Below, piece after piece: positions 1,296-62,996 of a DNA stretch of 64,000 nt. The DNA comes from Patescibacteria group bacterium (lineage in GTDB: Bacteria > Patescibacteriota > Patescibacteriia > JAXHNJ01): the NCBI GenBank assembly GCA_041649715.1, contig JBAZMP010000003.1:36155-100154 (forward strand), in the 5' to 3' direction. The notes under the pieces were generated by a model. The model had not been told where the DNA came from. It was given only the letters and a program-made list of their open reading frames with translations, and searched no databases. Every line of letters begins with the position of its first letter. Position 1 is the first letter of the stretch. The position numbers were made by a program, and so were the translations under genes.

Positions 1296-1967
1296 TCAAT
1301 CCTGACCTTCATTATCATCCTGGAGAAAACCGACGCCAAAGCCCTCGGTAAGAGAAGCCGGGCCGCGGCCAATCCCTCCGATATCATCCATGGGGATGCT
1401 GTTCCTGGAACCGGCCACGAAACGCTCCGTCGTGATCTCAAGGTTATCCCGCTGTCCGAGAATCAAACAAGATTGCATAATGATCCGGCACAAGACGCAG
1501 TCCAGCAAATGAGCGTTGATCTTCGCCTGAGTATCTTCGGGTAATACCTTCCTCTTCCGGGGCTTGGAAAACTCCTTTAGCTGCCCGAATGGGAAGTGAT
1601 CCGGACGGATCACATCGATCATGGTCACCATATCAGAACTTTGGCGGAATTCTTCCAAACAGTAAGGAAAACGATTTTCCTCCAGATTTTTCGCCAGGAC
1701 TTCAATCGATCGTTGGGCATCACCACTGCTCATAAAGAGCTCAAAGAACTCCTTGTAATCGAATATCCTGATCTTCAAAGCGACCAGGTGCCCCATCAGA
1801 GCGATCGAAGCGGAAGGAAGAATCTTCCATTCCTGAAGCATTTTTGTAAGGAACTCTTCCTGGCTCGGCGCATCATCAACCTTCACGTTTACCCCCTTGG
1901 AATCAGTTTGTGTGTCAAAACTAACTCTTTGTGAAAAAATATTAGCACTAAAATATAATCCTGTCAA
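1296..1967 (-). CDS. Hypothetical protein (no recognisable domain).
   Basis: 223-aa ORF bracketed by two related hairpin terminators. Overlapping plus-strand ORFs are shorter and judged to be shadows. Start codon uncertain. Confidence 0.35.
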   Translation of the reverse strand: MTGLYFSANIFSQRVSFDTQTDSKGVNVKVDDAPSQEEFLTKMLQEWKILPSASIALMGHLVALKIRIFDYKEFFELFMSSGDAQRSIEVLAKNLEENRFPYCLEEFRQSSDMVTMIDVIRPDHFPFGQLKEFSKPRKRKVLPEDTQAKINAHLLDCVLCRIIMQSCLILGQRDNLEITTERFVAGSRNSIPMDDIGGIGRGPASLTEGFGVGFLQDDNEGQD

Positions 1968-12190: not shown

Positions 12191-12787
12191 ATGAAGACAA
12201 AATATTTAGAAGTTGAGGTTCTGCCTTTTTCTATTCTGCCGGAAAATAACCCGGGCTTCGCCATCCGGCATTTAAGCAAGGAGTACGATCCGACAAAGAA
12301 AAAAACCTTAAACTTGCAAAAAATATCGTTCTATTTATTCCGGACAACTTTTATATTATTGCTGGCTTTTTTCCCGCTTTTTTCTTTTGGGCAGATTACT
12401 TTCAAGCAGGAAATCATCAAACTCACCAATATTGAAAGAAACAGACAGCATCTTCCCCTCCTAACCGATAATCCCCTTTTAGACGCGGCCGCCTTGGCCA
12501 AAGCCAATGACATGATCGCTTTGAATTATTTCAGCCACACTTCGCCCTCTGGCCTTTCTCCCTGGAACTTCATCACCGAAAATGGCTACGAATATAAATT
12601 CGCCGGTGAAAACCTGGCTTTGGATTTTTCCGACCCCCAAAATGCGATGACCGCCTGGCTGCGTTCCCCGAGCCATCGCGACAATATCCTCGATCCGGAT
12701 TTCAAAGAAATCGGTGTGGCCGTGGTCAAGGGCACGGTAGAAAACCAAGAAACAGTCCTGGTCGTCCAATTTTTCGGCACGCGGTAA
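12191..12787 (+). CDS. CAP/SCP/PR-1 (YkwD-like) domain secreted protein.
   Basis: CAP domain motifs (NRQHLPLL, NYFSHTSPSG, GENLA, HRDNILDPDFKEIGVAVV). The N-terminal start is uncertain; a hydrophobic signal-like segment is present. Confidence 0.75.
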   Translation: MKTKYLEVEVLPFSILPENNPGFAIRHLSKEYDPTKKKTLNLQKISFYLFRTTFILLLAFFPLFSFGQITFKQEIIKLTNIERNRQHLPLLTDNPLLDAAALAKANDMIALNYFSHTSPSGLSPWNFITENGYEYKFAGENLALDFSDPQNAMTAWLRSPSHRDNILDPDFKEIGVAVVKGTVENQETVLVVQFFGTR

Positions 12788-12953: not shown

Positions 12954-14714
12954 GTGGCCTTATTCTCTTTTACCCTAACCGACAATCCCTACCGCCGGTT
13001 GGGAAAAATGCTGGAAAAAGAAAAAATCCTCCCAAGGAACGATTTTAAAGAAATCTTTGAGCAATCTAAAAAGGAAAACCGGCCGTTTTTAGCCGTTCTT
13101 TGGGAAAAAGAAGGCCTGCCGGAAGATAAATTGAACCAAGCCTTGGCCCGCTATTTCCGATTACCTGAAGTGCGCTTGCGTGAAAAAACCATTGATCCCG
13201 AGGTTTTAAACCTTATCCCGAAGGAAATAGCCGAGCATGGTTCGATCGTTATCTTTAAAAAAATAAAGAACATCATCTACGTGGCCACGACCAACCCGGA
13301 AAATAAGTTGGTCTTTAATTTTATTAAGAAGAAAACCGGCCTTGACCCGAAAATTTTCATCACCTCCCCGGCTGACCTGAAACAGGCGATAAAAAAATAC
13401 AAAACGGAGATCGCCTCGGAATTTGAGAAAATAATCGACGACAGCATCAAACAGGTTCTCAGCTTGCACGAAAACACGGAAAAACTCGCCCAAGTCGTCC
13501 CGACGATTAAAATGGTTGATACCATAATCGAACAAGCTCTTTTGCAGAACGCTTCCGACATTCATATCGAACCGGTCGCCGAAAAAATAAGCGTGCGTTA
13601 CCGGATCGACGGCCTCCTGCAAAAAATAGTCACTCTCCCCAAACAAATACTCCCGACCGTTGTCACCCGCATAAAAATTCTCGCTAACCTAAAAATTGAC
13701 GAGCACCGCCTGCCTCAAGACGGACGTTTTAAATTCGAATTCAATGAACGGCCGGTCGCCATCCGCGTTTCGGTCATGCCCACCCTCAACGGGGCCAAAG
13801 TAGTTTTGAGACTTTTGGATGTCAAGGAAAAACAATTCAGCCTCCGACGCCTAGGACTGAATGTTAAGGATTTTGTCACGGTCAAGAAAGAAATGATCAA
13901 ACCCCACGGCTTGATCCTCGTGACCGGGCCGACCGGCAGCGGAAAAACAACCACTCTCTATGCAATTTTAAGGATGCTGAATAAAGAAGGCGTGAATATT
14001 TGCACGATTGAAGACCCGATTGAATACGGCCTGGAAGGGATCAATCAAACGCAGATCAATCCCAGCGCCGGCTTAACATTTGCCTCAGGTTTGCGTTCTC
14101 TCGTCCGCCAGGACCCGGACATCATCATGGTCGGCGAAATCCGTGACTTGGAAACGGCCGACATGGCGATCAATGCAGCGATGACCGGCCATCTGGTCTT
14201 ATCAACCCTGCACACCAATTCCGCATTTCTTGTCATCCAGCGCCTGATCGAAATGGGTATTAAGCCGTTTTTGGCCGCTTCCGTGATCAATGTCGTCATG
14301 GGTCAAAGACTGGTGAGAAAAATCTGCCGCTTCTGCAAATCGCAAAGAGGGTCAGCCGAAAAAATCCTGGCCCAATACGGTGGATATTTCGACCTGGAAA
14401 ATGCCCTGGCAAAATTTAAACGACTTAAACTGCTTCCCCCGGTCGGCTATAACTCCCTTTCCGAAATTAAATTTGCCCACGGCAAGGGCTGCCCGAAATG
14501 CCACGGCACCGGTTATTTGGGGCGCATCGGCATCTATGAAATACTGAAGAACAGCTCCCATATTTACCAGACGATATTAAAAGATCCGACGGCCAACGCC
14601 ATCAAAAATGAGGCCTTGAAACACGATATTCTGACCATGACCGAAGACGGTCTTTTAAAAGTGCTAAAAGGTCAAACAACGTTTGAAGAGGTTTTAAGAG
14701 TAACTAAAGAATAA
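12954..14714 (+). CDS. pilB: Type IV pilus assembly ATPase (GspE/PilB family).
   Basis: N-terminal GspII_E domain, Walker A (GPTGSGKTTTLYA), Asp/His boxes and a C-terminal zinc-binding tetracysteine (CPKCHGTGY). The start may be the internal ATG near 13008. Confidence 0.9.
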   Translation: MALFSFTLTDNPYRRLGKMLEKEKILPRNDFKEIFEQSKKENRPFLAVLWEKEGLPEDKLNQALARYFRLPEVRLREKTIDPEVLNLIPKEIAEHGSIVIFKKIKNIIYVATTNPENKLVFNFIKKKTGLDPKIFITSPADLKQAIKKYKTEIASEFEKIIDDSIKQVLSLHENTEKLAQVVPTIKMVDTIIEQALLQNASDIHIEPVAEKISVRYRIDGLLQKIVTLPKQILPTVVTRIKILANLKIDEHRLPQDGRFKFEFNERPVAIRVSVMPTLNGAKVVLRLLDVKEKQFSLRRLGLNVKDFVTVKKEMIKPHGLILVTGPTGSGKTTTLYAILRMLNKEGVNICTIEDPIEYGLEGINQTQINPSAGLTFASGLRSLVRQDPDIIMVGEIRDLETADMAINAAMTGHLVLSTLHTNSAFLVIQRLIEMGIKPFLAASVINVVMGQRLVRKICRFCKSQRGSAEKILAQYGGYFDLENALAKFKRLKLLPPVGYNSLSEIKFAHGKGCPKCHGTGYLGRIGIYEILKNSSHIYQTILKDPTANAIKNEALKHDILTMTEDGLLKVLKGQTTFEEVLRVTKE

Positions 14715-14715
14715 T

Positions 14716-15924
14716 ATGCCCATTTTTTCCTATACCGGCCTGGATAAAAACAATAATTACGTCAAAGCCACCCTGGAGACAGGTAATCTTAAAAAAGCGG
14801 CCCAACTCCTGGAAAAAGAAGGAGTGATACTCGTTAATATCCAAGAAGAAAGAACCCTCAAAAAAACCCTAACCGAACGGCTATTTAACAACGTTACCCG
14901 CCTGGACAAGATCTTTTTCACGCGTCATCTTTCCACCATGCTGGAATCCGGCATTGCTTTGGACCAAGCGATAAAAATCATTGCCGAGCAGACAACCAAT
15001 AAAACCTTTAAAACCACCCTATACGACATCTATAAACGCCTGCAGGGCGGCGAATCATTATTCGAATGTTTGGCCGCGCACCCGAAATATTTTTCCAAAT
15101 TTTACATCAATATCATCCGGGTCGGCGAAAAAAGCGGAAAATTAGACGAAGTTCTGGCCCAGCTTCTGGAGCAGCAGGAAAGCGACTACGAGCTTATTAA
15201 CCGCGCCCGCGGCGCCATGGTTTATCCGGCGGTGATCATCAGCGCTCTTATTGTCATGGTCGTCTTTATGATGACTTTCGTCATTCCGAAGGTCACCAGC
15301 GTTTTGAGCGAATACCACGTCAAGCTGCCGCTGGCTACCCGCATCCTGATCGGCTTGAGCAATTTTATCCTTCATTACGGCTATTATGTTTTTCCCGCCT
15401 TGATTGTTTTGGTCTATCTCTTCTTAAGATGGATAAAAAGCAAAAAGGGCAAAAAACGCTGGGATGCTTTCCTCCTGAAAATCCCGCATTTAAAAAAGAT
15501 CATGGCGGAATTCAATCTTGCCCGCTTTGCCCGATCGATGAGCGCCCTGATGAAAAGTGGGGTGCCGATAGACGAATCCCTGGCTTTGGCGGCCGATGTA
15601 TCCTCTAACACTTTTTACGCCGAATCATTGGCTTCCGGCATCCAGTTTGTCCGCAAAGGAATACCCTTGGCTGAGATTTTAAAAGGCCACCCGAAGCTTT
15701 ATCCCCCTATCACCGTTCGCATGATCGAGGTGGGCGAAAAAACCGGCAAGCTCGACCACATGCTTTCCCGCCTGGCCACTTTTTACGAAAAATCCGTGCT
15801 CAATACGATTGCCAACCTCGCTTCGGTCATCGAGCCGGTTCTCCTGCTCTGCATCGGCCTGGCCGTGGCCTTTGTCGCCATTTCCGTCCTGACCCCCATT
15901 TGGAAATTTTCCGAAACCGTATAA
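14716..15924 (+). CDS. pilC: Type IV pilus platform protein (GspF/PilC family).
   Basis: Duplicated T2SSF domain architecture with 3 TM segments. Immediately follows pilB. Confidence 0.9.
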   Translation: MPIFSYTGLDKNNNYVKATLETGNLKKAAQLLEKEGVILVNIQEERTLKKTLTERLFNNVTRLDKIFFTRHLSTMLESGIALDQAIKIIAEQTTNKTFKTTLYDIYKRLQGGESLFECLAAHPKYFSKFYINIIRVGEKSGKLDEVLAQLLEQQESDYELINRARGAMVYPAVIISALIVMVVFMMTFVIPKVTSVLSEYHVKLPLATRILIGLSNFILHYGYYVFPALIVLVYLFLRWIKSKKGKKRWDAFLLKIPHLKKIMAEFNLARFARSMSALMKSGVPIDESLALAADVSSNTFYAESLASGIQFVRKGIPLAEILKGHPKLYPPITVRMIEVGEKTGKLDHMLSRLATFYEKSVLNTIANLASVIEPVLLLCIGLAVAFVAISVLTPIWKFSETV

Positions 15925-15947
15925 TTAATTAATTTTTTTATAATTTT

Positions 15948-16403
15948 ATGTCACATCTTAAAAAAGGTTTTACTCTCGTCGAAGCGCTCTCGGTGATCGG
16001 CGTTCTTGCCGTCCTGACGGCCATGGCGGTCCCGTCCTACGCCTCGATGAGAAAAAACGTGGTCTTCGGCAATACATTTCAAGAAATAGCCAGTGCCTTA
16101 AGAATGGCCCAGAATAATTCGATGACCGCTCAAGACGGCAATATGTGGGGGGTTAAATTTAATAATGACAGTTATATTATGCTGGAATGTAATGATGAAA
16201 ATTGTTCAAGCCCCTCGAATACAGACACCTATCCGGTCAGCGGCCTAAAAATAATCACGCCGGCCACAAATCCTATTATTTTTAACCGCCTATCAGGCAC
16301 TCTTTACGGGGCCGCGGTCTCCCAAACAATCGCCGTTGAGAATGAGGCGGGATCAAGTGTAAAGAATATCTTCGTTGAACCAAATGGAAAAATTTCCCCA
16401 TAA
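15948..16403 (+). CDS. Type IV (pseudo)pilin with a prepilin N-methylation motif.
   Basis: KKGFTLVEALSVIGVLAVL class III signal peptide with conserved Glu+5. Confidence 0.8.
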   Translation: MSHLKKGFTLVEALSVIGVLAVLTAMAVPSYASMRKNVVFGNTFQEIASALRMAQNNSMTAQDGNMWGVKFNNDSYIMLECNDENCSSPSNTDTYPVSGLKIITPATNPIIFNRLSGTLYGAAVSQTIAVENEAGSSVKNIFVEPNGKISP

Positions 16404-16848
16404 AAATATGCGGAATTCGTTTTCAATAAAAAATAAAGGCTTTTCCGTCGTTGAGATTTTGGTCGCCGTCAGTATGGCCGGTATTATGATCGTTTCCATA
16501 GGCGGTGCCCTGAATTCTATCCATAAATTGAACGCCAGGAGCGAAATAAATGAAAAAGCGATCGCCTACGCGAAACAAACCCTGGAATTAGTCACCGATT
16601 TGAAAAATCATGATTTTGACGCGGATTTATCCAGCGTCGACAGTCTCGCCCTGGAAACCGGGTTTACACGGCCAAGCCCCGCCGTGACCGTGACTCCTCT
16701 TTGCCGTGACGGCAACGGGAACATAATGTCCGCCTGCGGCGCGAGCGTGCCAGACGGCAAAACCGAAAAAGTAACGGTCATTATCCAGTATTCGGGAACG
16801 GAAAAAGCTAAATTATCGACTATTTTTACTGATTGGCGAATTCCATGA
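16375..16848 (+). CDS. Minor pilin-like protein (prepilin-type N-terminal domain).
   Basis: NKGFSVVEILVAVSMAGIMIV prepilin motif. The true start is probably internal (around 16408). Confidence 0.65.
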   Translation: MNQMEKFPHKNMRNSFSIKNKGFSVVEILVAVSMAGIMIVSIGGALNSIHKLNARSEINEKAIAYAKQTLELVTDLKNHDFDADLSSVDSLALETGFTRPSPAVTVTPLCRDGNGNIMSACGASVPDGKTEKVTVIIQYSGTEKAKLSTIFTDWRIP

Positions 16849-17366
16849 AAAAAGTATTCAAAAAAAATAACAAGGGATTCACCCTGATTGAGCTTCTAAT
16901 ATACATGGGCATTTCCACGATTATTGTCGTTGTTTTGACCAGCTTTATGGCTGATGTGTTAAAGAATGCGGCCAAGACAAAAATAACAAAAGAGGTGCAG
17001 CAGAATGCCAGATTTATTACGGCAAAAATTACCCAAGAAATAAGAAACGCCCAAAGTATTAATATCGATACTTTTGACCTTACCTTGAATAATAAAACTC
17101 TATTTTCCTTAAAAGACGACGGCGTCTATTACGATGATGATGTCAGCGACGCTGATCCGGCTTTAAAACTCACGAGCAACCAGGTTAAAATCAACCGAGA
17201 TGCTGACCCAAACGATCCTACGCAATATAATTCACAATTCAAGCCTGTCTCGGGCACAGTTTTTATCAAATTAACGGTGGAACAAGCCAGCCCCAATGCG
17301 AGAAGATCCGAGAGCAGCCAAATCACCCTTTCTTCAGCGGCTGTCCCAAGGGCCTCACTCTATTAA
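16833..17366 (+). CDS. Minor pilin-like protein (prepilin-type N-terminal domain).
   Basis: NKGFTLIELLIYMGISTIIVVVL prepilin motif. Confidence 0.7.
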   Translation: MANSMKKVFKKNNKGFTLIELLIYMGISTIIVVVLTSFMADVLKNAAKTKITKEVQQNARFITAKITQEIRNAQSINIDTFDLTLNNKTLFSLKDDGVYYDDDVSDADPALKLTSNQVKINRDADPNDPTQYNSQFKPVSGTVFIKLTVEQASPNARRSESSQITLSSAAVPRASLY

Positions 17367-17379
17367 ATACTTATTTGGC

Positions 17380-18843
17380 ATGAATATAAGGATATATAAA
17401 AATCAAAGAGGTGTCGTCGCCATTCTTACCTTATTGGCGGTTTCGGTTTTGGCTTTATTAATTATGACCACGATGAGCGTGCTGGCGGCGGATGAATTAA
17501 AAATGTCAATCTCAGAAAGAAATACGGAGAAAACCTTTTACGCGGCTGAGACCGGAATAAACGAGGCGTTGTATCGATTAAGCAAGGATGGTCTTCCCGC
17601 TAATTTTTGTTTATCCTTTGACGGAACTGCTATACCCTGTGCGAATTCCGAAAAAATTGAAGTGAGTTTTTCACTTGATCCAAATAATCCCTATAATCGC
17701 ATTATCAACTCACGAGCCCAAGATATCACCGGCAAAGAAAGAACTTTAAGTTTTACGGCCCAAACGAACAGTTATGCCGCCGGCTTGGATTTTGCCGTTC
17801 ATACTGGAACTGGCGGATTGGAAATGGAGAATAATACAAGGGTTTACGGAAACATTCACAGCAACGGGAATATCTACGGCAGTACCGGTGGCACACCAAA
17901 AAGCGAAATTTACGGAGACATTAAAGTTTCGGGCATAACCACTAATTTGGTCCAAACTTTTTCCTATGATCTACGTTATGCCGACAACACTCTTTTTAAA
18001 CACCTTAACGGAAATCTCCATGCTCATGAAATTGTTGATTCAAAAATCAGCGGCGACGCGTGCTACCAAATTATCAACTCCTCCACGGTTAGCGGTTCAT
18101 CAGAAGTATACGGCTCTAATCCCAATTGTATCAGTGATCCTGCTCCCGCTACTTTTCCCATTACTGATCCTCAAATAGAAAATTGGACAAATGAAATTAA
18201 AGACCATGTAAATGAGGCTATATTAAATGGAACGGGACAATTATTCCCAACAAATAAAACGGTAAATACCTCCGAAACTTGGGGTCCGACCAAGGTAAAC
18301 GGCAATCTAATTATTCAAGGCAGCCCCCAGGGAGTAAATAAGCTAGTTATGAATGATAATCTGTGGGTGATAGGAAATTTAGAAATACAAAATAACGGTC
18401 AGCTCACTTTATTCAAAAATATCTTGGTCAGCGGCAACATAATATTTTACCAAAACTCCACCATCAATCTTGACCCAAGCGTGGGTGAAAACGACGGTTT
18501 AATAATCGTTAATGGAAAAACTGAAATAAAAAACGTGGTTAGCATAAACGGATCAGGGAATAGTAAAAGTTCACTTATGTTAATTTCTACCAACAACTCT
18601 TTGGATACCGATAATCCAGCTATACTCGCTAACAATGTTTCTAATGGTGTTTTATACTATGCGAAAGACGGAAAAATAACCATTGATCAAAACGGCGATT
18701 TATGCGGCACTATTGCCCACACTATCCATTTGAAAAATGGGGCAACTGTTAGATATAAGCCAGACAAACAGATACTGGATATACCACCAAACGATGATAA
18801 TTATACTTTTGGTCCTGTGTCTGGTTCCTGGCAGGAAAAATAG
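17380..18843 (+). CDS. PilX-like large pilus-associated protein (N-terminal TM/pilin-like helix, beta-rich C-terminal region).
   Basis: MNIRIYKNQRGVVAILTLLAVSVLALLIMT resembles PilX N-terminal domains. It is the last gene of the pilus operon. The track ORF begins earlier, at 17296. Confidence 0.5.
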   Translation: MNIRIYKNQRGVVAILTLLAVSVLALLIMTTMSVLAADELKMSISERNTEKTFYAAETGINEALYRLSKDGLPANFCLSFDGTAIPCANSEKIEVSFSLDPNNPYNRIINSRAQDITGKERTLSFTAQTNSYAAGLDFAVHTGTGGLEMENNTRVYGNIHSNGNIYGSTGGTPKSEIYGDIKVSGITTNLVQTFSYDLRYADNTLFKHLNGNLHAHEIVDSKISGDACYQIINSSTVSGSSEVYGSNPNCISDPAPATFPITDPQIENWTNEIKDHVNEAILNGTGQLFPTNKTVNTSETWGPTKVNGNLIIQGSPQGVNKLVMNDNLWVIGNLEIQNNGQLTLFKNILVSGNIIFYQNSTINLDPSVGENDGLIIVNGKTEIKNVVSINGSGNSKSSLMLISTNNSLDTDNPAILANNVSNGVLYYAKDGKITIDQNGDLCGTIAHTIHLKNGATVRYKPDKQILDIPPNDDNYTFGPVSGSWQEK

Positions 18844-19423: not shown

Positions 19424-22400
19424 ATGACTAAAATCAATCTTATGCCGAAAAAATCCTGGAAGACAAAAGCCTTCAAAGCTTTAAGTATTGTTGCCCAGGT
19501 GACTTTAATTTTCCAGATGTCCTATTTGGGCGTCTTTTTCGCCCCGAAAACCGCGGAAGCGGCCGCCACCAGTCTTACCACGAACATCCTTTCGTGGCAT
19601 ATCCTTGGCGTGGACAGCAACAGCCCCGTGACTGACGGGCCGCATAAATTCCTTATCCAAGCCCGAATCGCCAATACCGGCGCTCTTCCGGCCACCGGCG
19701 TGCAAACAAATTTCGCTTTCGGCTCCGGGACGGCCAACGCCTATCTCAGTTTGGTTTCAAACGCCGCTTTTCCTTTGAACACTATCAATTCAGGCGCTCA
19801 TAAAGATGTCTTTTATGTCGTGCAAGTAACACCGCCGGCCACGCCGAACTCTCCGAGCAATCCGGTTTTTGATACCAGCCGACCTTTCACCATCACCGCT
19901 ACCTCTCCGGATTCAAGCAACGCTTCGGCCAGCCAGACCTTATACATCGAGCACATCCTTTCCCAGAGCAGAAATCACATTTTATCCTCAACTGTCATAC
20001 CGGCTAATCCCTTGGTCGGCCAGCCTTTCACTGTTCACGTGGAATATGAAACCGCCAGCACTTACTTGGACATCACGCCCCAGATGACCTACAATCCGGC
20101 GGTCGCCACTCTTGATTCCGTTACCACCCATTACGTGACAGACGGCGTGGATGAAAATGATATCTATTCCCAGGATCACGGCAATATTATCCATTCTGAT
20201 TTTCATTTCCGCGCCCAGAGCGCCGGCACGTTGAGTTTTTATTACACCGTTCTTGATCACTCCGGTTCCAGTTTCCATTATAACGACGATTTCAGCGACG
20301 CGATCATTGTCCCGGTGACCCCGCGGCAGAACCTGGAAAAATCCGTGGATAAAGCGACGGCCACGCCGGGTGAAACTATCACTTACACCTTGAAGTATTT
20401 CAACACAGGCAACATCGACCTGACCAATGTGGTCATCACTGATACCTACGACAGTCATTTTACTTTTACTTCCTCTAACCCTGCCCCGAGCGTCGGCAAC
20501 AACGTCTGGAATATCGGCACTCTGCCGGTGGCCGCGGGCGGAACGATCACCATCACGGGCACCCTGACCGGAGTTTTTCCGGCGGGCACGACTAAAGTGC
20601 ATAACTTGGCCGTCATGACCTCTGACCAGGTCGCGCCTGTTCAAGCGACGGCTGACACCACGGTCACGGCGGTCTGCGATTTAAACATAATCAAATCCGT
20701 CGATAAGGCGACGGCTTCAGTCGGTGACACTCTTACCTATACCCTCCGATACGAAAATACCGGCAACACGAAATGCACCGGCACCGGCGTCAAAGTTTAT
20801 GATCCGCTGGATACCTATCTGACCTATGTGACCGGTTCAAAACACATCACCATCACCAATGACGGCGGAAATTTAGGGACTGAACCCGGCCAAGGCGACG
20901 ATTATAACGGCAAAGCTAATATCCTGCTTTATAACGTCCGCGAAGTTGTCTCGGGTGAATACGGCGTCATTACCTTTCAAGCGACGGTAAATACTCCGAC
21001 GGTCTGCGGCGATTTTCAGATCCCCAACAAAGGCAAGATCTGGAGCAATGAAACCGCTTATATCTGGAGCAACGAAGTGAAAACCGATATCCACATGGAC
21101 TGCTACGGTTCGGTATCGGGCTATAAATTCAACGATTTAGACAAAGATGACAATAATAAAGAAACAGGCGAACCTGGATTACCGGACTGGGAAATTTGTC
21201 TTCTTAACGTAAATACTAAGGCGGAAGTTTGCACCACGACTGATGCGAACGGCTACTATAAATTCACCAGTGTTCCGTTTGGCAGTTATCAACTCTACGA
21301 AAAGCAGCAAACCGGCTGGACTCAAAGTTATCCCCTGGAAATTACAAATCCTGGCCAAGATTATAATTTCACTCTTGCCAGCCCCGTTGATCTGACCGGC
21401 AAGAATTTTGGCAATTACCGCAACAGCGGCAATTTAACGCTGGTAAAAGAAGTCATCAATAACAATGGCGGTACGGCCGTGGCTACAAACTGGACATTGA
21501 GCGCCACCGGCCCTACTCCAATTTCTGGAGCCGGAGGGGTTTCCGGTACGGTCATAGCGGGTACCTACGCCCTTTCTGAATCCGCAGGTCCTGCTGGCTA
21601 CCAGGCCAGCGCCTGGAATTGTATCGGCGGTAGCCAAACAGGCAACGACGTCACAATCAATGACGGGGATTCAGCCACCTGCAAGATTACCAATGACGAT
21701 ATCCAGCCGAAATTGACCGTGACCAAAATCGTGGTCAATGACAACGGCGGCACGGCGGTTATCGCTGACTTTCCTTTGTTTGTTAACGCAACGAGCGTTA
21801 CCTCCGGAGTACAAAACGGCTTTAACGCCGGCGCTTACACTGTTTCCGAAACGAATAAAAACGGCTATACCGGAGCAATCACCGGCGACTGCGCGGCTAA
21901 CGGTTCCGTCACTTTAAATGCCGGGGACGTAAAAACCTGCACCATCACCAATGACGATATTTCTGGCAAGATCTCAGGTTATAAACTCGACGATCAAGGG
22001 AACAAGCTTAACGGCTGGGAAATCTGTTATACGAAGCAAGATCTAATTTTACCCGACCAATTATCAGTCCAGATAACTCAGCCGATCTGCGTGCTTACGG
22101 GTGATGGCGACTGGCCAGATGGTTATTATGAATTTACCGGCTTATATGTTGGCGATTATGTGGTGTTTGAAAACTTGCTGTATGGTTGGACGCAACTTGA
22201 ACCACAAGGCGGAGTCCATAATATAACAGTCCAATCAGGAACTGACTCAAAAGACAATAACTTCGTCAACAGACTGAACGACTTCAATGTTGAAATCGTA
22301 AAATCCGCTCCCGCCACTGTAAATGCCGGAGAAAATCTGACCTATACCCTGGACTGGACTGTGACAGGCAATACTCCTGTTAATAACGTTATTATTTCTG

Positions 22401-23869
22401 ATGTTCTGCCGGCGAATACGACCTATGTTTCTGGCGGCGACAACTACGATTCTGCCACCAACACCGTTTCTTGGAACCTCGGCACCGTCAATCCGACGGA
22501 TAACGGTACGGTCTCCTTCACGGTCAAGGTCAACTCCCCGCTCTACAACGGCACGATAATCGATAATGAAGCGGAAATCTGCGGCGAAGCCCAGTTAGTG
22601 GCGGCCACTTTCGCTCTCCAGGCGCCGACACAGAAATGCGACGACGACGACACGTCGACTACGGTAAAATCTGGATTCAACGTCGACGTTGATAAAGACG
22701 GACCGCTGACCGGCAAACCCGGAGAGCAGATTGATTACACCGTCGTCTGGAGCACTTCTGGCAACTCCCCTATTGATAAATTAGTCATTACGGATAACTT
22801 ACCGGCTGACACCACCTTTGTTTCCGCAAGCAATGGCGGCGCGGAAAACAATGGCGTCATCACCTGGGATCTTGGTCCTCAAACCCCGGGCGTACACGGT
22901 ACCTTCACGGTTACTGTCACCCTGAACTCCAACTTGAATCCTGGCAACCAGGTAACCAACGAATCCGAGATCTGCGCTTGGGTGTTTGAAGCGCCAAGCG
23001 GAGAATTGATGGTCTGCGATAAAGACGACACCACTACTCTGATCAAGAAACCGATCCTCGCTATTGAAAAAACAGTTGACCTGGTCTTTGCCAATCCGGG
23101 CAATGTGGCCACCTATACGGTGACCATCACCAATACGGGCAACGAAACCGCTTATAATGTCGTGCTCACCGATACCTTGCCGGCTGGCTTCACCTTTGTG
23201 GAAAACGGCCTTGATACTAAATCCTGGTCCTTAGGCGACCTTGTGCCGGCTGACAGCGTCACCGTAAACTATGAAGTTACGGTCGGCAAAAATGTCACGG
23301 CTGGCTTTTACGACAACTTTGCGGAAGCCAAAGCCGACAACCACGGCAAAATCCACGATATCGCCAGTTTAGAGGTGAGGATTCCGAAAAAACAGTCCTC
23401 GGAAGCCTATCCTATTCTCACGATCGGAAAGAGCGTGGACAAAGCCACGGTCAATCCCAACACCCTCGTCAATTACACCGTGAAAATCGCCAATAAAGGC
23501 GAAGCGACCGCTTATAACGTAATCCTCACCGATAAGTTGCCGGCTGGCTTCACCTTCACGGATACGGGCTTGGGCCAAAAGACCTGGAATCTTGGCAACA
23601 TGACCCCCGGCACCTCCATTACCCTAAATTACGAAGTTTTAGTCGGTAAGGACGTCAAGTCGGGCGATTATAAAAACCTGGCCACGGTGAAAGCGGATAA
23701 TAATGATCCAGTCAGCGCTTCAGTAAACGTCAATGTCAAGCAAGGTGCCGTCTTGGGTCTGACCGGACCTAAATGGTATGAAATCTTCTATTATCTCTTG
23801 GGCCTGTTATTTGTCGCCGGTGGCATCAAAGCCTACCGCAAAATAAACCAGACAGGAGAGACTCGATAA
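19424..23869 (+). CDS. Giant (1481 aa) surface adhesin with multiple DUF11 ('conserved repeat domain') and CnaB/SdrD-B-like modules and a C-terminal cell-wall sorting signal.
   Basis: Signal/TM N-terminus and many DUF11-type repeats (e.g. ITYTLKYFNTGNIDLTNVVITDTYD, ATYTVTITNTGNETAYNVVLTDTLPAGFTF). The C-terminus is VLGLTG + hydrophobic helix + KAYRK. Strong RBS (GAGGAG). Confidence 0.8.
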   Translation: MTKINLMPKKSWKTKAFKALSIVAQVTLIFQMSYLGVFFAPKTAEAAATSLTTNILSWHILGVDSNSPVTDGPHKFLIQARIANTGALPATGVQTNFAFGSGTANAYLSLVSNAAFPLNTINSGAHKDVFYVVQVTPPATPNSPSNPVFDTSRPFTITATSPDSSNASASQTLYIEHILSQSRNHILSSTVIPANPLVGQPFTVHVEYETASTYLDITPQMTYNPAVATLDSVTTHYVTDGVDENDIYSQDHGNIIHSDFHFRAQSAGTLSFYYTVLDHSGSSFHYNDDFSDAIIVPVTPRQNLEKSVDKATATPGETITYTLKYFNTGNIDLTNVVITDTYDSHFTFTSSNPAPSVGNNVWNIGTLPVAAGGTITITGTLTGVFPAGTTKVHNLAVMTSDQVAPVQATADTTVTAVCDLNIIKSVDKATASVGDTLTYTLRYENTGNTKCTGTGVKVYDPLDTYLTYVTGSKHITITNDGGNLGTEPGQGDDYNGKANILLYNVREVVSGEYGVITFQATVNTPTVCGDFQIPNKGKIWSNETAYIWSNEVKTDIHMDCYGSVSGYKFNDLDKDDNNKETGEPGLPDWEICLLNVNTKAEVCTTTDANGYYKFTSVPFGSYQLYEKQQTGWTQSYPLEITNPGQDYNFTLASPVDLTGKNFGNYRNSGNLTLVKEVINNNGGTAVATNWTLSATGPTPISGAGGVSGTVIAGTYALSESAGPAGYQASAWNCIGGSQTGNDVTINDGDSATCKITNDDIQPKLTVTKIVVNDNGGTAVIADFPLFVNATSVTSGVQNGFNAGAYTVSETNKNGYTGAITGDCAANGSVTLNAGDVKTCTITNDDISGKISGYKLDDQGNKLNGWEICYTKQDLILPDQLSVQITQPICVLTGDGDWPDGYYEFTGLYVGDYVVFENLLYGWTQLEPQGGVHNITVQSGTDSKDNNFVNRLNDFNVEIVKSAPATVNAGENLTYTLDWTVTGNTPVNNVIISDVLPANTTYVSGGDNYDSATNTVSWNLGTVNPTDNGTVSFTVKVNSPLYNGTIIDNEAEICGEAQLVAATFALQAPTQKCDDDDTSTTVKSGFNVDVDKDGPLTGKPGEQIDYTVVWSTSGNSPIDKLVITDNLPADTTFVSASNGGAENNGVITWDLGPQTPGVHGTFTVTVTLNSNLNPGNQVTNESEICAWVFEAPSGELMVCDKDDTTTLIKKPILAIEKTVDLVFANPGNVATYTVTITNTGNETAYNVVLTDTLPAGFTFVENGLDTKSWSLGDLVPADSVTVNYEVTVGKNVTAGFYDNFAEAKADNHGKIHDIASLEVRIPKKQSSEAYPILTIGKSVDKATVNPNTLVNYTVKIANKGEATAYNVILTDKLPAGFTFTDTGLGQKTWNLGNMTPGTSITLNYEVLVGKDVKSGDYKNLATVKADNNDPVSASVNVNVKQGAVLGLTGPKWYEIFYYLLGLLFVAGGIKAYRKINQTGETR

Positions 23870-23873
23870 ATCC

Positions 23874-24566
23874 ATGGAAAAACCAGTGGAAAAAACTCCC
23901 GCCGAAAGCGATCCCCGCATTCGGCGGGAGAAAGGTAAATACAGATACTTGAAAATCGGGATAATAATTATTATCCTGGCGGGTATCGGAATTCTGGCCT
24001 ATCCTTTCATCCCCTCCTTAAAGTATGCTTTGAGCAAACCGGGCAATACCTACCCTTACGAAACGAGGTTGCTTTCAGGCAACATAAATCTTGAGGCCCT
24101 GCCGGTGAATAAAAATGTGAATCTTGGCTCTCTGCCGGATATCAAGACCTTAAAAAGAATTCCCGACGATAATCGGCTGGTCATCCCTAAAATCGGCGTG
24201 GATGTCGCTATCGTGGAAGGACAAAACGAAGAAACGGCCTTGCTTAAAGGCGCCTGGCGCAACCCGAAAACTTCCAACCCGGAAAATGGCGGCAATACGG
24301 TCATTTCGGGCCATCGGTTTCGCTTTCGGCCGCCGAATAACACCACCTTTTATCTTTTGGATAAACTGGCGGTCGGCGATACTTTCATCATTTACTGGAA
24401 AGGGGTAGAATACGATTATCAGATTTCGGAAACAAAGATTGTCGCTCCGACGGCAGTAGAAATACTTAATAACACGGCGAACTCCCAAGTAACCCTGTTC
24501 TCATGCACTCCCCTCTTTACCACCAGACAAAGGCTGGTGGTGATCGGACAGCTGGTTGAATGGTAA
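23874..24566 (+). CDS. Sortase family transpeptidase.
   Basis: N-terminal TM anchor, catalytic His (TVISGHR), TLFSCTP (TLxTC) active-site Cys motif and a downstream Arg. It starts 5 nt after the adhesin stop. Confidence 0.85.
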   Translation: MEKPVEKTPAESDPRIRREKGKYRYLKIGIIIIILAGIGILAYPFIPSLKYALSKPGNTYPYETRLLSGNINLEALPVNKNVNLGSLPDIKTLKRIPDDNRLVIPKIGVDVAIVEGQNEETALLKGAWRNPKTSNPENGGNTVISGHRFRFRPPNNTTFYLLDKLAVGDTFIIYWKGVEYDYQISETKIVAPTAVEILNNTANSQVTLFSCTPLFTTRQRLVVIGQLVEW

Positions 24567-24590
24567 ATTAATATTTAAATAGACAAAAAA

Positions 24591-25610
24591 ATGAAAAAAT
24601 TAATGCTGGCCATTACGCTTCTTGCTTTGGCGCTTTCGCCCATAAAGGGAGAGGCTAAAAATCACGGGGGCGTCGCCTCAATCGAAATTTCGCCTGTTAA
24701 CGGCGAAGTGAAGGCGGGAGAGAGTCTGACCCTAAGGCTTACCGCCAAAGACAGCGCCGGTCTGACTTGGGACATCTCGCCAAACGCTTATTTCCAAATC
24801 AATGACCCCCGCGGTTCCCTCAAGAATAATAAATATCTGGCCGGCAAAATCGGCACCTGGAATTTAAGCGTGACCTATGGTAATTTCAGCGCGAAGACAA
24901 CCGTCAAGGTACTGCCAGGCAACCTTGCCACTATCATCATAAATCCGAATTCAAAACCTGAAATCATCGATTTGGGAGCGACCAGAACTTTTAACGCCCA
25001 GGGTTTTGATAAGATGAATAACCTTTTGACAGGCTTGCTTTTTACCTGGTCACAGGAAGATGACTTAGGTGATATCAACCAAAAAGGCGTTTTTACCGCC
25101 AAAGACACCGGCGAGGGAAAAATAATCGCGAGCCTTAACGGTGTTTCCGGCTTCTCGGCCATAAAAGTCAAAGAAAAAACATTGTTGCCGGCGGCCGCGA
25201 ATACAACCAACACCAATACCGCCAGACCAACAACGGCCGTGAATACCAACGCCAATGATAATAATAACAGCAATGTCAACGGCCAGGTCGCCGGAGTGGA
25301 GACAGCCGCGGCCGCGGAAACGACGGAGACAAAAGATGAATGTAAAACGCTCGCCTGGTACTGGTGGGTTTTGATCATGCTCGCGTTTTTCGCCGTTTTG
25401 ATCCTCTATTACTTTTTAATCCGCAAATCAAAAGGCGGCTGGTGGTGGATTTTCCCGCTGATTTTAATAGCCGGCGTAGTCTGGCTCTATTACCAGTACT
25501 CCTGCAACAAATACGGCTGGTGGCCCTGGGTTTCCATCATTATGGCCATACTAATCTCACTTTTCCGGCCAAAGAAGTATTTTGAAGAGCCAAAATCTCC
25601 GACTTTCTAA
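24591..25610 (+). CDS. Secreted Big_2 (bacterial Ig-like) domain protein with a Trp-rich C-terminal double TM anchor.
   Basis: Signal peptide, two Ig-like repeats (IEISPVNGEVKAGESLTL..., IIINPNSKPEIIDLGATRTFNAQGFD...), an Asn/Thr-rich linker and two C-terminal TM helices. Confidence 0.6.
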   Translation: MKKLMLAITLLALALSPIKGEAKNHGGVASIEISPVNGEVKAGESLTLRLTAKDSAGLTWDISPNAYFQINDPRGSLKNNKYLAGKIGTWNLSVTYGNFSAKTTVKVLPGNLATIIINPNSKPEIIDLGATRTFNAQGFDKMNNLLTGLLFTWSQEDDLGDINQKGVFTAKDTGEGKIIASLNGVSGFSAIKVKEKTLLPAAANTTNTNTARPTTAVNTNANDNNNSNVNGQVAGVETAAAAETTETKDECKTLAWYWWVLIMLAFFAVLILYYFLIRKSKGGWWWIFPLILIAGVVWLYYQYSCNKYGWWPWVSIIMAILISLFRPKKYFEEPKSPTF

Positions 25611-25636
25611 ATATCATCAAATCTAAAAATACAAGA

Positions 25637-25668
25637 AAAACCTCTTCCTTTTGGAAAGAGGTTTTTCG
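25637..25668 (+). terminator. Intrinsic terminator (aacctcttcc-tttt-ggaaagaggtt followed by tttc).
   Basis: 10-bp stem and T-run, 27 nt after the stop at 25610. Confidence 0.55.
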
Positions 25669-25803: not shown

Positions 25804-26619
25804 TTAGAAGATTAGAAAATATACAATCACGATTATCGCCAGGACTAACCGGTAATAGGCAAAAATATTTAGCGAGTGATTTTTTAAATAATTCAAAAGA
25901 AATCTGACCGCCCAGTAGCCGGCCAAGGCGGCGGCCAAAAATCCTAAGAGATAAATAATCATCTCATGACCGCTGAAAGAATGGGAAAATAGTTCCGTCA
26001 TCTTTTTCACCACCGCCCCGAAAATCACCGGGATAGAAAGCAAAAAGGAAAATCTCGCCGCTTCCTCCCTTTTCAATTTCTGGGTCATACCGGCCAAGAT
26101 GGTTATCCCGGAACGGGATACACCGGGTATTAAAGCGATGGCCTGGCACAAACCGATGATAATCGCCCCGTTTAAACCCATCTCTTTCAATCCTTTTGTC
26201 TTTTGGCTGTATTTTTCCAAAATCAGGAATAGAAGACCGACGAGAATCATCATGACTGCCACTAAAAATGGCGAGCGGAAAATCGTCTCGGCTTTATCTT
26301 CGAGTAAAAAACCGAATATACCGGCGGGAATGGCGGCCACTAAAATAAACCAGGCTAACCGCTGATTTTCGTCATTTTTTAAGTCCCACTTGACCAAGCT
26401 TTTGAAAAATGCGGACAAATAGGCTATAATATCCTTAGAGAAAAAAACCACCAGGGCCAAGAGGGTGCCGGCATGCAAGATCACGTCAAAGCTCAAGTCA
26501 TCCTGCAGCCGGAAATTTAGCAAGCGATGCAGAATGACCAAATGGCCGGAACTCGAGATAGGCAAAAACTCCGTCAGCCCCTGAATGCCTCCGAAAAAGA
26601 TTGAGTAAATATAGTCCAT
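25804..26619 (-). CDS. uppP: Undecaprenyl-diphosphatase (BacA/UppP).
   Basis: GLTEFLPISSSGHL and GVSRSG motifs; 8-TM architecture. Confidence 0.85.
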   Translation of the reverse strand: MDYIYSIFFGGIQGLTEFLPISSSGHLVILHRLLNFRLQDDLSFDVILHAGTLLALVVFFSKDIIAYLSAFFKSLVKWDLKNDENQRLAWFILVAAIPAGIFGFLLEDKAETIFRSPFLVAVMMILVGLLFLILEKYSQKTKGLKEMGLNGAIIIGLCQAIALIPGVSRSGITILAGMTQKLKREEAARFSFLLSIPVIFGAVVKKMTELFSHSFSGHEMIIYLLGFLAAALAGYWAVRFLLNYLKNHSLNIFAYYRLVLAIIVIVYFLIF

Positions 26620-26622
26620 AAA

Positions 26623-27060
26623 ATGATATATCCTAAATTAATACTTATTCCTTTGATCGTCGGCCTGATCAGTTTCGGCCTGAAGATCATTATTAAAGCG
26701 ATCAAGGGCACTTTTTCTTGGGAACTGTCGGCCACTTACGGCGGCATGCCCTCCATCCACACCGCCTTTGTCGTTTCTCTCTCTACCGTCGTAGCGCTCT
26801 ACGACGGGATTTTCAGCGCCACTTTCGCCATGTCTGCCATCTTCAGCCTGATTATCATCCGGGACGCCGTGGGTTACCGCCGTTACCTGGGGATCCATTC
26901 AAAAGTCTTAAACAGCGTCATCCAGGAATTACCCCACAAAGAGCGAGTAAAATTTCCGCCCCACCTCCAGGAACAGCTGGGCCACACGCCCTTACAGGCG
27001 GTGATCGGCGCCCTCATCGGTTTTATCGCGGCTATTCTTCTTTATATCATTATTCCTTGA
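26623..27060 (+). CDS. Divergent PAP2-family membrane protein (DUF212, acid phosphatase/vanadium-haloperoxidase-related).
   Basis: GGMPSIHTAFV and GYRRYLG motifs typical of DUF212. Confidence 0.6.
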   Translation: MIYPKLILIPLIVGLISFGLKIIIKAIKGTFSWELSATYGGMPSIHTAFVVSLSTVVALYDGIFSATFAMSAIFSLIIIRDAVGYRRYLGIHSKVLNSVIQELPHKERVKFPPHLQEQLGHTPLQAVIGALIGFIAAILLYIIIP

Positions 27061-57486: not shown

Positions 57487-57522
57487 GAAAGCCCCGATTT
57501 TCCGAGGCTTTCTTTTTTATAT
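57487..57522. terminator. Bidirectional intrinsic terminator (gaaagcc-ccgattttccg-aggctttc with A-run 5' and T-run 3') between the convergent Rieske and copA genes.
   Basis: 7-bp stem flanked by aaaaaaa and tttttt. Confidence 0.5.
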
Positions 57523-59739: not shown

Positions 59740-59743
59740 AAAT

Positions 59744-61661: not shown

Positions 61662-62996
61662 TTATTTTTTCAGGAGGAAAGCGAGGCCGCTCAAACCGAT
61701 TAAAACGATCAAATAACTCGTGATATCGGTGCCGGCTTTGGGCAAAGTTTCCTCTTCTACTGTTTCAGCCGCTACCTGGGCGGTATCTTCCGCGCCGGCG
61801 ACCATACCTTCGACGACTTGATCTTTTATTTCGGTGGCGTTATCCGGTTGGCTGACAACGGCTGGCTCGTTCTTCGGCTCAGATTTGGGCTCATCTGAAG
61901 GAGCCGGTAAACCTTCTTCTTCCTCTTCTTCAACTGCTTCAACCACCGTATTTTCCTTATCATTATCTTCTGTCTCCTGATTTACGTCATTCGTATCATT
62001 ACCCTGGGGCTTAAGAAATTCATAACTCTGGCAAACGAAATCTGTATTGTAATAAAGCTCAAAAATTGCTTTGTCATTTTCATCGACAACTCCGCTCCTG
62101 TCAAAATCCGCTAACGAATTCTGGCCGGCCATATATTCGCTAAAGAAAGACAAGTCAGAAAGATTTACCTTGTAGTCGCCGTTAAAATCCGGGCAAAGAC
62201 CGACAAAATCTATTAGTCTTGACTCATCACAAGTAAAAGATTTGTGGAAATAGAGATTAAAAACCGCAAGGTCATAATCATTGACATAACCGTCGCCATC
62301 GAAATCGGCCAGCGCATGATAATTACCGGCGACGTTTATCTCCGAAGGATAATGACTGACAAACCAGGAGAAATCAGACAAATCAACTGAGTTAGATTCG
62401 TTGGTTTCCACAAAATTCGGAAAACAATCTAAGATTGGTTCTACCGGCGTGCTCACTCCCGTACCGACAGGCACAACGCAGACATAGTTCGTGTTGTAAT
62501 AAACCTCAAAGATAGCCGCGTCAAATTCGTCGACGTCGCCGTCCTGATCAAAATCGGCTTCACCGGTATTGTTTTCAGTTTTATAGGCGGAAAAATAACT
62601 AAGATCAGACAGATCCACAACTCCACTATTGTCATAATCCGGACAAAGAGTATTGAAGTTCGGCACATTCGGACAACCCGCAAACGGCTTGTTAGAATAA
62701 ATCTCAAAAATAGCCCGATCAAAACTATCCACATTACCGTCGCCGTTAACATCCGCTAAAGCATCATAATTGCCGCTTCCGTTTTCCACGGAAGGATAAT
62801 GTGTGCCGAAAAAGCCAAAGTCAGATAAATTGACGTTGCCGTCGTTGTTAAAATCCGGAAAACATCCTGTCCAAGGAGACGCCACCTGAGCCGAGGTTGA
62901 TTTAGGCGCCAAAAAGAGACCCAAGACCGTCATTGAAATGGCGAAAACCGCCACGCTGGCGATATTCAAGGCCTTACTAAGATTGATTTTTTTCAT
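61662..62996 (-). CDS. Secreted surface protein with four dockerin-like Ca-binding repeat pairs and a C-terminal LPKAG sortase sorting signal.
   Basis: Signal peptide; repeats DFNNDGNVNLSDFGFF / DVNGDGNVDSFDRAIFEIY, recurring four times; acidic linker; then EETLPKAG + TM helix + KK. Confidence 0.65.
   Translation of the reverse strand: MKKINLSKALNIASVAVFAISMTVLGLFLAPKSTSAQVASPWTGCFPDFNNDGNVNLSDFGFFGTHYPSVENGSGNYDALADVNGDGNVDSFDRAIFEIYSNKPFAGCPNVPNFNTLCPDYDNSGVVDLSDLSYFSAYKTENNTGEADFDQDGDVDEFDAAIFEVYYNTNYVCVVPVGTGVSTPVEPILDCFPNFVETNESNSVDLSDFSWFVSHYPSEINVAGNYHALADFDGDGYVNDYDLAVFNLYFHKSFTCDESRLIDFVGLCPDFNGDYKVNLSDLSFFSEYMAGQNSLADFDRSGVVDENDKAIFELYYNTDFVCQSYEFLKPQGNDTNDVNQETEDNDKENTVVEAVEEEEEEGLPAPSDEPKSEPKNEPAVVSQPDNATEIKDQVVEGMVAGAEDTAQVAAETVEEETLPKAGTDITSYLIVLIGLSGLAFLLKK

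Follow-up and report, generated by a model that had tools for sequence, protein, structure and literature searches.

Two putative sortase-cargo pairs, one with a giant CLIPPER adhesin, at a locus of a Patescibacterium

The 64,000-nucleotide (nt) stretch of contig JBAZMP010000003.1 analysed here (called the window) comes from a Patescibacteria group bacterium and carries on its plus strand the gene of a giant adhesin of 1481 amino acids (aa), followed at once by a sortase gene, srt1. On the minus strand, at the other end of the window, stand the genes of two further surface proteins, and just outside it lies a second sortase gene, srt2. We favour, with moderate confidence, a partition into two dedicated pairs suggested by motif conservation and genomic context: srt1 would act on the adhesin through the pentapeptide LGLTG, and srt2 on the two minus-strand proteins through an LPxAG motif. 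The original prediction, made from the window alone, had recognised the adhesin with its several DUF11 domains and its end in VLGLTG, a hydrophobic helix and a basic tail, as well as the two minus-strand proteins ending in ETLP[KQ]AG, a transmembrane (TM) helix and a basic tail; all three are indeed encoded. It had also made them cargos of one and the same sortase. All three do carry sorting signals, but srt2 adjoins the LPxAG genes and the motif co-varies with the enzyme.

This co-variation is the observation that carries the partition. Beside srt1 homologues, 79 cargos have threonine (75) or serine (four) and never alanine at the fourth position of the pentapeptide, whereas alanine is found there in all eight srt2-linked cargos; the association of motif and sortase family is perfect, with a p value by Fisher's exact test of 1.7e-11 when cargos are counted and of 1.8e-7 when loci are counted conservatively. 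The neighbourhood of the srt1 family was surveyed in 80 GTDB loci of srt1 relatives, from which open reading frames (ORFs) with a C-terminal helix and a basic tail were extracted, and the 72 tails with a recognisable motif comprise 68 with TG, four with SG and none with AG. For srt2, the contexts of five homologues were fetched, four of them with readable sorting-signal cargos nearby. These four other genomes provide six cargos with the endings SLPKAG, ELPKAG, ELPQAG (three times) and ELPRAG, five of which are DUF11/CLIPPER proteins and one of which has no Pfam match; with the two window proteins, LP[KQR]AG is present in 8/8 srt2-linked cargos from five genomes. On the srt1 side, LG[LI]TG is kept in the adhesin orthologues of loci L001, L168 and L169, so the conservation of C-terminal motifs among orthologues, proposed earlier as a check, is seen for both types. 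No srt2-type gene was detected by tblastn in any of the 80 srt1 loci, and both pairs are kept in two other genomes, the metagenome-assembled genome (MAG) JBDRMK01 (L001 and L163) and the run SRR22387909 (L168 and L164). Inside the window, a scan of all ORFs for a pentapeptide followed by a C-terminal hydrophobic stretch and a basic tail returned the adhesin and the two LPxAG proteins, plus one spurious 61-aa ORF. The three cargos share this tripartite C-terminus, and the canonical L-P-x-T-G pentapeptide occurs in none of them (LGLTG, LPKAG and LPQAG).

The second sortase lies 321 nt upstream of the LPQAG gene and ~2.3 kb past the end of the window, in a flank taken from the source contig (locus L081) and numbered here in extended coordinates. 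Only 27% identical to srt1, it displays the motifs FGHSSS and TLVTCWPPGT, and its residues H122, C191 and R200 do not vary among 14 srt2 homologues; it scores 47.4 bits with TIGR01076 and reaches no class cutoff (class C 51, D 33, E 32, F 17). The srt2 family is tiny, with 14 clusters at 90% identity and three representatives at 50%. Among 1.84 billion representatives, three match srt2 at E <= 1e-30, after which the bit score falls from 184 to 103. A metagenome scan with the srt2 profile found two close relatives only, whose contigs (1.2 and 2.4 kb) contain no cargos. In the remaining 78 loci the sortases are distant (<=33% identity), and the cargos next to them display the TG motifs TPATG, LPVTG, IPVTG, VPVTG and LGRTG. 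Since these distant TCWPP sortases adjoin TG-type cargos, the TCWPP motif alone is not predictive of alanine at P1, and to judge from the gene contexts P1 alanine is specific to the narrow srt2 clade. The tail of the LPKAG protein, taken by itself, passes TIGR01167 (18.4 bits, cutoff 15.9); the LPQAG tail reaches 14.7 bits with PF00746, below the cutoff of 20. A homologue search with the C-terminal 175 aa of the LPQAG protein gave a single 145-aa match, which is uninformative on the link with srt2.

The enzyme next to the adhesin, srt1, is a genuine sortase of a clade typical of the Candidate Phyla Radiation (CPR). It exceeds the cutoffs of the sortase-superfamily (peptidase C60) models PF04203 (86.9 bits, cutoff 26.6) and TIGR01076 (76 bits, cutoff 39.35), and His147, Cys211 and Arg220 are retained by all 33 homologues aligned (42-73% identity). 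The sortase that had been predicted behind the adhesin is confirmed in this respect, with its triad intact; its catalytic motif is TLFSC and not TLxTC as first described, the other 32 aligned homologues having threonine before the cysteine. Typing by hidden Markov models (HMMs), which had been suggested, succeeded at the level of the family, but no class model was reached: srt1 stays below every NCBIfam class cutoff (in bits, with cutoffs in brackets, class C 82.2 (160), class D 62.2 (165), class E 61.8 (160), SrtD 65.1 (140) and class GN 36.7 (158)), and with these class models it cannot be assigned to any of the classes A-F. The AlphaFold2 (AF2) model (pLDDT 85.4) shows a helix at residues 14-53 and then the sortase beta-barrel. 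Compared with the PDB by Foldseek, this model matches sortase C1 at E about 7e-13, with SrtA, SrtE and SrtD close (~1e-12 to 1e-11); the best structural matches are class C sortases (PDB 4g1j and 3rbi), and in the PDB sequence search and Foldseek taken together classes C, A, D and E lie within one order of magnitude. A C-terminal membrane helix is absent from srt1, which ends ...RQRLVVIGQLVEW, 10 residues past Arg220. The srt1 clade is large: the protein search gave 264 clusters, and 421 loci were confirmed in the species representatives of GTDB, in agreement with the published presence of a sortase in more than half of CPR genomes (PMC6744442). The srt1 protein is 100% identical to the NCBI entry 'MAG: sortase [Patescibacteria group bacterium]', and this exact match confirms the supposition from gene content that the source organism, an ultra-small CPR bacterium, is a Patescibacterium.

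In the adhesin, the last DUF11 match stops at aa 1432 and is followed by KQGAVLGLTG, a hydrophobic stretch and KAYRK... The pentapeptide, at first taken as LPxAG-like, is of the L-x-x-T-G type. The block VLG[LI]TGPKWYEIFY is invariant in the three closest orthologues (L001, L168 and L169; sortases 68-71% identical). The 280 aa ahead of it show 63-70% identity, and both TM helix and basic tail are variable. The arrangement LGLTG-PKWY-E-IFYY moreover sits in the register of the srt1 family, whose tails read ...V-L-G-(0-25 aa)-h-x-x-T-G-x4-[D/E]-hydrophobic (for instance VLGAELPETG, VLGEELPKTG, VLGLATTG, VLAETG and VLGEAVDTG). Position 1 of the family pentapeptide is leucine in 57/72 tails, and position 2 is permissive (A 26, P 22, T 9, V 9, E 4, G 1, I 1). 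Adhesin and sortase genes are separated by a spacer of 4 nt (23870-23873), the ATG of srt1 standing 5 nt past the last base of the stop codon, and a GGAG resembling a ribosome-binding site lies inside the 3' end of the adhesin gene, in its last codons. The same adjacency is found in L001, L168 and L169, and no second cargo is linked to srt1 in the clade of the adhesin.

Several points weigh against the two-pair partition. The srt2 sample is small and clustered (five genomes, 49-76% identity), and the co-variation may partly reflect shared ancestry. Glycine at position 2 is rare in the srt1 family (1/72), and the adhesin tail gives no match to TIGR01167 or PF00746, even at E <= 10. The analysis covered ~74 kb of a 235-kb contig, and the genome may hold further sortases or cargos elsewhere. 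Because housekeeping sortases act on genes to which they are not linked, adjacency alone is no proof of exclusivity. Finally, the LPxTG-type SrtA of staphylococci and streptococci takes LPxAG proteins as substrates (PMC3436756, PMC2657157), and for that reason srt1 might accept them too.

A more far-reaching version of the partition, which we put forward as tentative, is that the CPR possess a sortase system with a grammar of its own. The srt2 clade would be specific for LPxA↓G and form a new specificity class, srt1 would recognise a relaxed h-x-x-T-G, and an extended leader, a VLG box and a Trp-rich protein would add up to a dedicated secretion and anchoring route; leader and box would then be conserved cargo elements not described for Gram-positive substrates. 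The VLG box is what had been noticed as KxGAVLG and interpreted as a shared stalk module. The stalk module that the cargos share is the DUF11/CLIPPER domain, and the conserved residues are really a three-residue box behind the last CLIPPER domain, widespread in the family (in most CPR sortase cargos, as seen in the tails of L002-L079). It lies 3-10 residues past the DUF11 match and 0-25 residues upstream of the pentapeptide. Strict VLG is found in 53/74 srt1-family tails and relaxed V[LI][GA] in 64/74, for an expectation of 0.055 VLG per 50 aa in protein bodies; VLG is present in 6/8 srt2-linked cargo tails as well. Given its likeness to the start of the internal CLIPPER A-strand (PILTIGK compared with AVLGLTG), one may speculate that the box is a vestigial repeat boundary. 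The extended leader is common to the three window cargos and to the large cargos of both sortase families, small cargos having plain signal peptides in its place. Its layout is a basic stretch, [WF]K[TA]LN[IV], about 10 aa, [SG][LMF][IVL]G.F..P and then an A.A site (in the adhesin, cleavage is predicted after AEA, by inspection), and no family model matched it. It may correspond to the YSIRK-type leaders found in LPXTG proteins of Gram-positive bacteria.

The adhesin could also be merely tail-anchored, its VLGLTG being decayed or coincidental and srt1 serving cargos elsewhere in the genome. This is conceivable insofar as the tail matches no LPXTG-anchor HMM, the glycine at position 2 is almost unique in the srt1 family and LGLTG overlaps a widespread VLG box that might be kept for a structural reason. 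We nevertheless hold it to be unlikely, since three orthologues keep a 16-residue block with the motif unchanged but differ in TM helix and tail, the 4-nt coupling to srt1 is conserved, the TG-x4-acidic-hydrophobic register is that of 70+ family cargos and the clade offers srt1 no further linked cargo.

That srt1 alone, as a housekeeping enzyme of relaxed specificity, anchors all three cargos with either T or A at position 4 is less credible, and we consider it improbable. The tripartite signal, the unusual N-terminal leader and the VLG/VAG box common to the three proteins would fit such an enzyme, as would the permissive second position in its family (A, P, T, V, E, G) and the processing of LPxAG proteins by SrtA in Staphylococcus aureus and Streptococcus uberis. 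Yet a dedicated srt2 stands directly upstream of both LPxAG genes, alanine at position 4 goes from 0/79 srt1-linked to 8/8 srt2-linked cargos, and the two gene sets lie ~38 kb apart on opposite strands. A role of srt1 as a pilus-type, class C-like polymerase joining adhesins, or the adhesin and minor subunits, into a covalent fibre was rejected as very improbable: class C does give the best class-level HMM (82 bits) and structural matches, and the cargo has SpaA-type and isopeptide-type domains, but the class C score is about half of the cutoff of 160 with classes A, D and E almost equal, the C-terminal membrane helix is missing, a single 1481-aa cargo replaces the small pilin set and no separate housekeeping sortase is found in the cluster.

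Under the two-pair partition, and by analogy with the Staphylococcus aureus SrtA paradigm, the window would contain a complete module 1 (19424-25610, plus strand) and the cargo half of a module 2 (minus strand). Module 1 would be an operon running from the giant CLIPPER/SpaA adhesin through srt1 to an Ig-like/Trp-rich membrane protein. The N-terminal leader would direct the export of the adhesin, and the C-terminal helix with the basic tail would keep it in the membrane; Cys211 of the membrane-anchored srt1, assisted by His147 and Arg220, would attack LGLT↓G, with the scissile bond predicted between T1447 and G1448, and form a thioacyl intermediate. The enzyme would then hand the adhesin over to an amino group on the stem peptide of lipid II, whereby the protein would become covalently bound to peptidoglycan and expose its variable tip domain to the outside. 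Module 2, whose start is outside the window, would consist of srt2, the 916-aa LPQAG protein and the LPKAG protein with dockerin repeats. Its two cargos would most likely be processed by srt2, not by srt1, with cleavage after alanine (LPxA↓G). On the same analogy, the cargos of both pairs are probably attached to the cell wall in the classical way. A role of these proteins in host attachment is conceivable. Table 1 collects the coordinates.

Table 1. Positions of the features discussed, in window numbering unless marked as extended or as belonging to another locus; aa numbers refer to the adhesin.
Feature	Position	Strand	Basis
Giant fibrillar adhesin, 1481 aa, proposed srt1 substrate	19424..23869	+	ORF, Pfam/NCBIfam
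Adhesin, extended N-terminal secretion leader MTKINLMPKKSWKTKAFKALSIVAQVTLIFQMSYLGVFFAPKTAEA	aa 1-46, 19424..19561	+	N-termini compared
Adhesin, putative binding (tip) domain, all-beta	aa 47-300, 19562..20323	+	
Adhesin, DUF11/CLIPPER domains	aa 304-407, 420-524, 956-1052, 1096-1182, 1212-1305, 1332-1432		Pfam
Adhesin, SdrD_B/SpaA	aa 566-646		Pfam sub-fragment scan
Adhesin, SpaA_2 domains	aa 668-755 and 763-841		Pfam sub-fragment scan
Adhesin C-terminus, ...VKQGAVLGLTGPKWYEIFYYLLGLLFVAGGIKAYRKINQTGETR	end of 19424..23869	+	
Adhesin, VLG box, overlaps pentapeptide	aa 1443-1445, 23750..23758	+	
Adhesin, predicted recognition pentapeptide LGLTG	aa 1444-1448, 23753..23767	+	orthologue conservation, family register
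Adhesin, hydrophobic stop-transfer helix (~aa 1453-1468), then basic tail KAYRKINQTGETR from K1469	23780..23866	+	
Sortase srt1, 230 aa, N-terminal membrane helix, YPFxPxxxY segment	23874..24566	+	PF04203, TIGR01076
srt1 catalytic residues	His147 24312-24314, Cys211 24504-24506, Arg220 24531-24533	+	
Third gene of the putative operon, 339 aa	24591..25610	+	ORF
14-bp palindromic hairpin between convergent genes	25635..25667	.	pattern match
LPKAG-anchored protein, 444 aa, proposed srt2 substrate	61662..62996	-	ORF, Pfam
LPKAG pentapeptide	61731-61745	-	
LPQAG-anchored protein, 3' part, proposed srt2 substrate	63186..>64000, full gene to extended 65936	-	
LPQAG pentapeptide; its VLG box	63303-63317; 63354-63365	-	
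Second sortase srt2, 210 aa, outside the window	extended 66257-66889 = L081 6108-6740	-	
Shared-leader sites	19424-19561 (+); 62880-62996 (-); L081 7061-7200; L004-L056 and L164-L167 cargo N-termini		
Sorting-signal peptides of the cargos: KQGAVLGLTGPKWYE, EEETLPKAGTDIT, DETLPQAGSNVT			

The architecture of the adhesin supports its description as a fibrillar, stalk-type surface protein. Pfam recognises six DUF11/CLIPPER domains (239.9 bits in total), two SpaA_2 and one SdrD_B/SpaA domain, with which NCBIfam TIGR01451 agrees; the six DUF11 domains were all recovered again by sub-fragment scans, and four of the six begin with the A-strand pattern L-x-[IV]-x-K (aa 420, 956, 1212 and 1332). DUF11 has been renamed CLIPPER and is an isopeptide-bonded stalk domain of fibrillar adhesins (10.1101/2025.04.25.650565). 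The tip domain (aa 47-300) has no Pfam match. It is absent from the closest adhesin orthologue (locus L001), and its relatives are adhesin N-termini in L022 (79% identity at the aa and 70% at the nt level), L046 (70%) and L032 (61%); the sortase of L022 is only 42% identical. This distribution suggests modular exchange of the tip between distant CPR lineages, or strong selection on a binding domain. An AF2 model of the tip computed from the single sequence (pLDDT 50.5) was too poor and was not used for a fold search.

The third gene, directly behind srt1, probably belongs to the same unit, as judged from the conservation of its neighbourhood. Its product combines a signal peptide, an Ig-like region, a low-complexity Asn/Thr-rich linker and a Trp-rich polytopic C-terminus with the motif WYWW...WWWIFP...YYQYSC..WWPW, and belongs to no significant Pfam or NCBIfam family. 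Its Trp-rich membrane domain adjoins srt1 homologues in 31/80 loci and is also found in L168, L169 and L170; the protein may be a sortase-associated membrane factor. The hairpin behind it, found by pattern matching, is likely the terminator both of the adhesin-srt1 operon and of the convergent uppP. More widely, the genes upstream of srt1-type sortases in the 80 loci mostly encode very large proteins.

Comparison with known systems helps to place the locus. The srt1 enzyme resembles the class A/E housekeeping sortases of Gram-positive bacteria in its fold, His-Cys-Arg triad and N-terminal membrane anchor, and the cargos resemble LPXTG/LAXTG proteins in the succession of leader, pentapeptide, hydrophobic helix and basic tail. 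Both the LPXTG and LAXTG types are covered by L-[AP]-x-T-G, the consensus of the srt1 family; set against the cognate LAxTG motif of class E, position 2 of the family is A in 26/72, P in 22/72 and another residue in 24/72, with G in the window adhesin. Unlike housekeeping sortases, srt1 is below the class cutoffs, goes with an LG[LI]TG motif, is operon-coupled to a single giant cargo and belongs to a Patescibacterium. With the class C pilus islands, to which srt1 is closest by HMM and structure, the locus has SpaA-like cargo domains in common; it differs from them in the lack of a C-terminal TM helix and of a pilin gene set and in a score far below the cutoff.

Several sortases with motifs of their own coexist in Staphylococcus aureus, where SrtA (LPXTG) is distinguished from SrtB (NPQTN, isd locus), and in Bacillus anthracis with its SrtA, SrtB and SrtC. 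The present locus is comparable with such multi-sortase genomes (PMC3208642) in having two divergent paralogues, each beside cargos with its own motif variant. Unlike in the SrtA/SrtB partitioning, it is here the P1 residue (T or A) that discriminates within an LPxxG-like motif, and the LPxAG enzyme clade is tiny. The LPxAG proteins of staphylococci and streptococci have the same pentapeptide with Ala-4, TM helix and basic tail (PMC3436756; PMC2657157), but they are occasional substrates of a general sortase, whereas here the motif marks 8/8 srt2-linked cargos and no srt1-linked one. As in the CLIPPER/SpaA fibrillar adhesins (10.1101/2025.04.25.650565), a stalk of DUF11, SpaA_2 and SdrD_B domains is flanked by a non-repeat N-terminal tip and a C-terminal sorting domain; the difference is that the tip here has no family and seems to have moved between CPR lineages that are distant from each other.

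In earlier papers, sortases and 'sortase motifs' were mentioned for CPR surface proteins (PMC6744442, PMC5220378, PMC4736985). CPR sortases are already known to be common, and the locus is a variant of Gram-positive-like anchoring. Modestly new are the rare sortase clade linked only to LPxAG cargos, the conserved LG[LI]TG motif with which a giant CLIPPER adhesin ends, the VLG box and the extended leader that the cargos share. The literature searched, on sortases in Patescibacteria/CPR/Parcubacteria and on LPXAG, treats CPR sortases at the level of gene presence only, and no definition of CPR sortase motifs was found in it; a 2026 'Pam pilus' preprint concerned an unrelated donor-strand-exchange system. 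Patescibacteria/CPR live attached to other microbes, and how they display very large surface proteins is largely unstudied, for which the locus supplies concrete, testable enzyme-substrate pairs. If the T-versus-A partition is true, srt2 would be a natural P1-Ala sortase, of interest for sortase-mediated ligation, and the prediction of CPR surface proteomes would improve, as the giant adhesin escapes the LPXTG models now in use. Otherwise the locus would simply be one more sortase-anchored adhesin.

The surroundings of the adhesin-srt1 unit offer further observations. Behind the sortase cluster follow the genes of a UppP/BacA undecaprenyl-diphosphatase (25804-26619, minus strand) and of a DUF212 protein (26623-27060, plus strand), and the same order recurs in numerous distant loci of the CPR (among them L002, L010, L022, L032, L168 and L170), a synteny that links the sortase to genes of lipid-carrier recycling. 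Directly upstream of the adhesin lies a type IV pilus set (12954-18843, plus strand) with PilB-like and PilC-like genes, three prepilin-type proteins with N_methyl motifs and a 515-aa PilX_N-like protein; in L001, unannotated ORFs of similar sizes (198, 488 and 188 aa) stand ahead of the adhesin. A protein of ~500 aa whose C-terminal membrane domain has a conserved 'RIQH' motif is encoded directly downstream of srt1 homologues in L170 (7912-9477) and in some 40 further loci. A 198-aa window protein (12191-12787, plus strand) is homologous to the N-terminal half of this protein; the clade of the window has this short form only, at a site elsewhere. An independent case of glycine at position 2 was met on two unrelated metagenome contigs (L119 2204-3139 and L141 5137-5970), in the form of a protein that ends in ELLGRTG, a TM helix and a basic tail and is encoded directly upstream of a TCWPPWSN-type sortase.

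The two LPxAG proteins differ in composition. The LPQAG protein, 916 aa in full length, has 11 Cys-rich DUF4215/myxo repeats, a SpaA_4 domain and one DUF11 domain and ends in DETLPQAG, a TM helix and a basic tail. The LPKAG protein has four dockerin-type-I modules and an acidic linker and ends in EEETLPKAG, a TM helix and KK; a wall-anchored protein made of dockerins only is unusual, and its modules suggest a cohesin-like partner on the same or on the host cell. In a related MAG (L163 9339-15023), the srt2 orthologue precedes a 1894-aa RHS/YD-repeat protein that lacks a sorting signal; next comes a DUF4215/CLIPPER protein, the C-terminus of which is beyond the fetched stretch. Directly downstream of the LPKAG gene lies a copper-handling cluster (57517-61393, minus strand) with a CsoR-type repressor, an HMA-DsbD-cupredoxin membrane protein and a P-type ATPase. 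Beyond it, a 1243-aa ORF without Pfam match (53400-57131, plus strand) is conserved in a second sample (L082).

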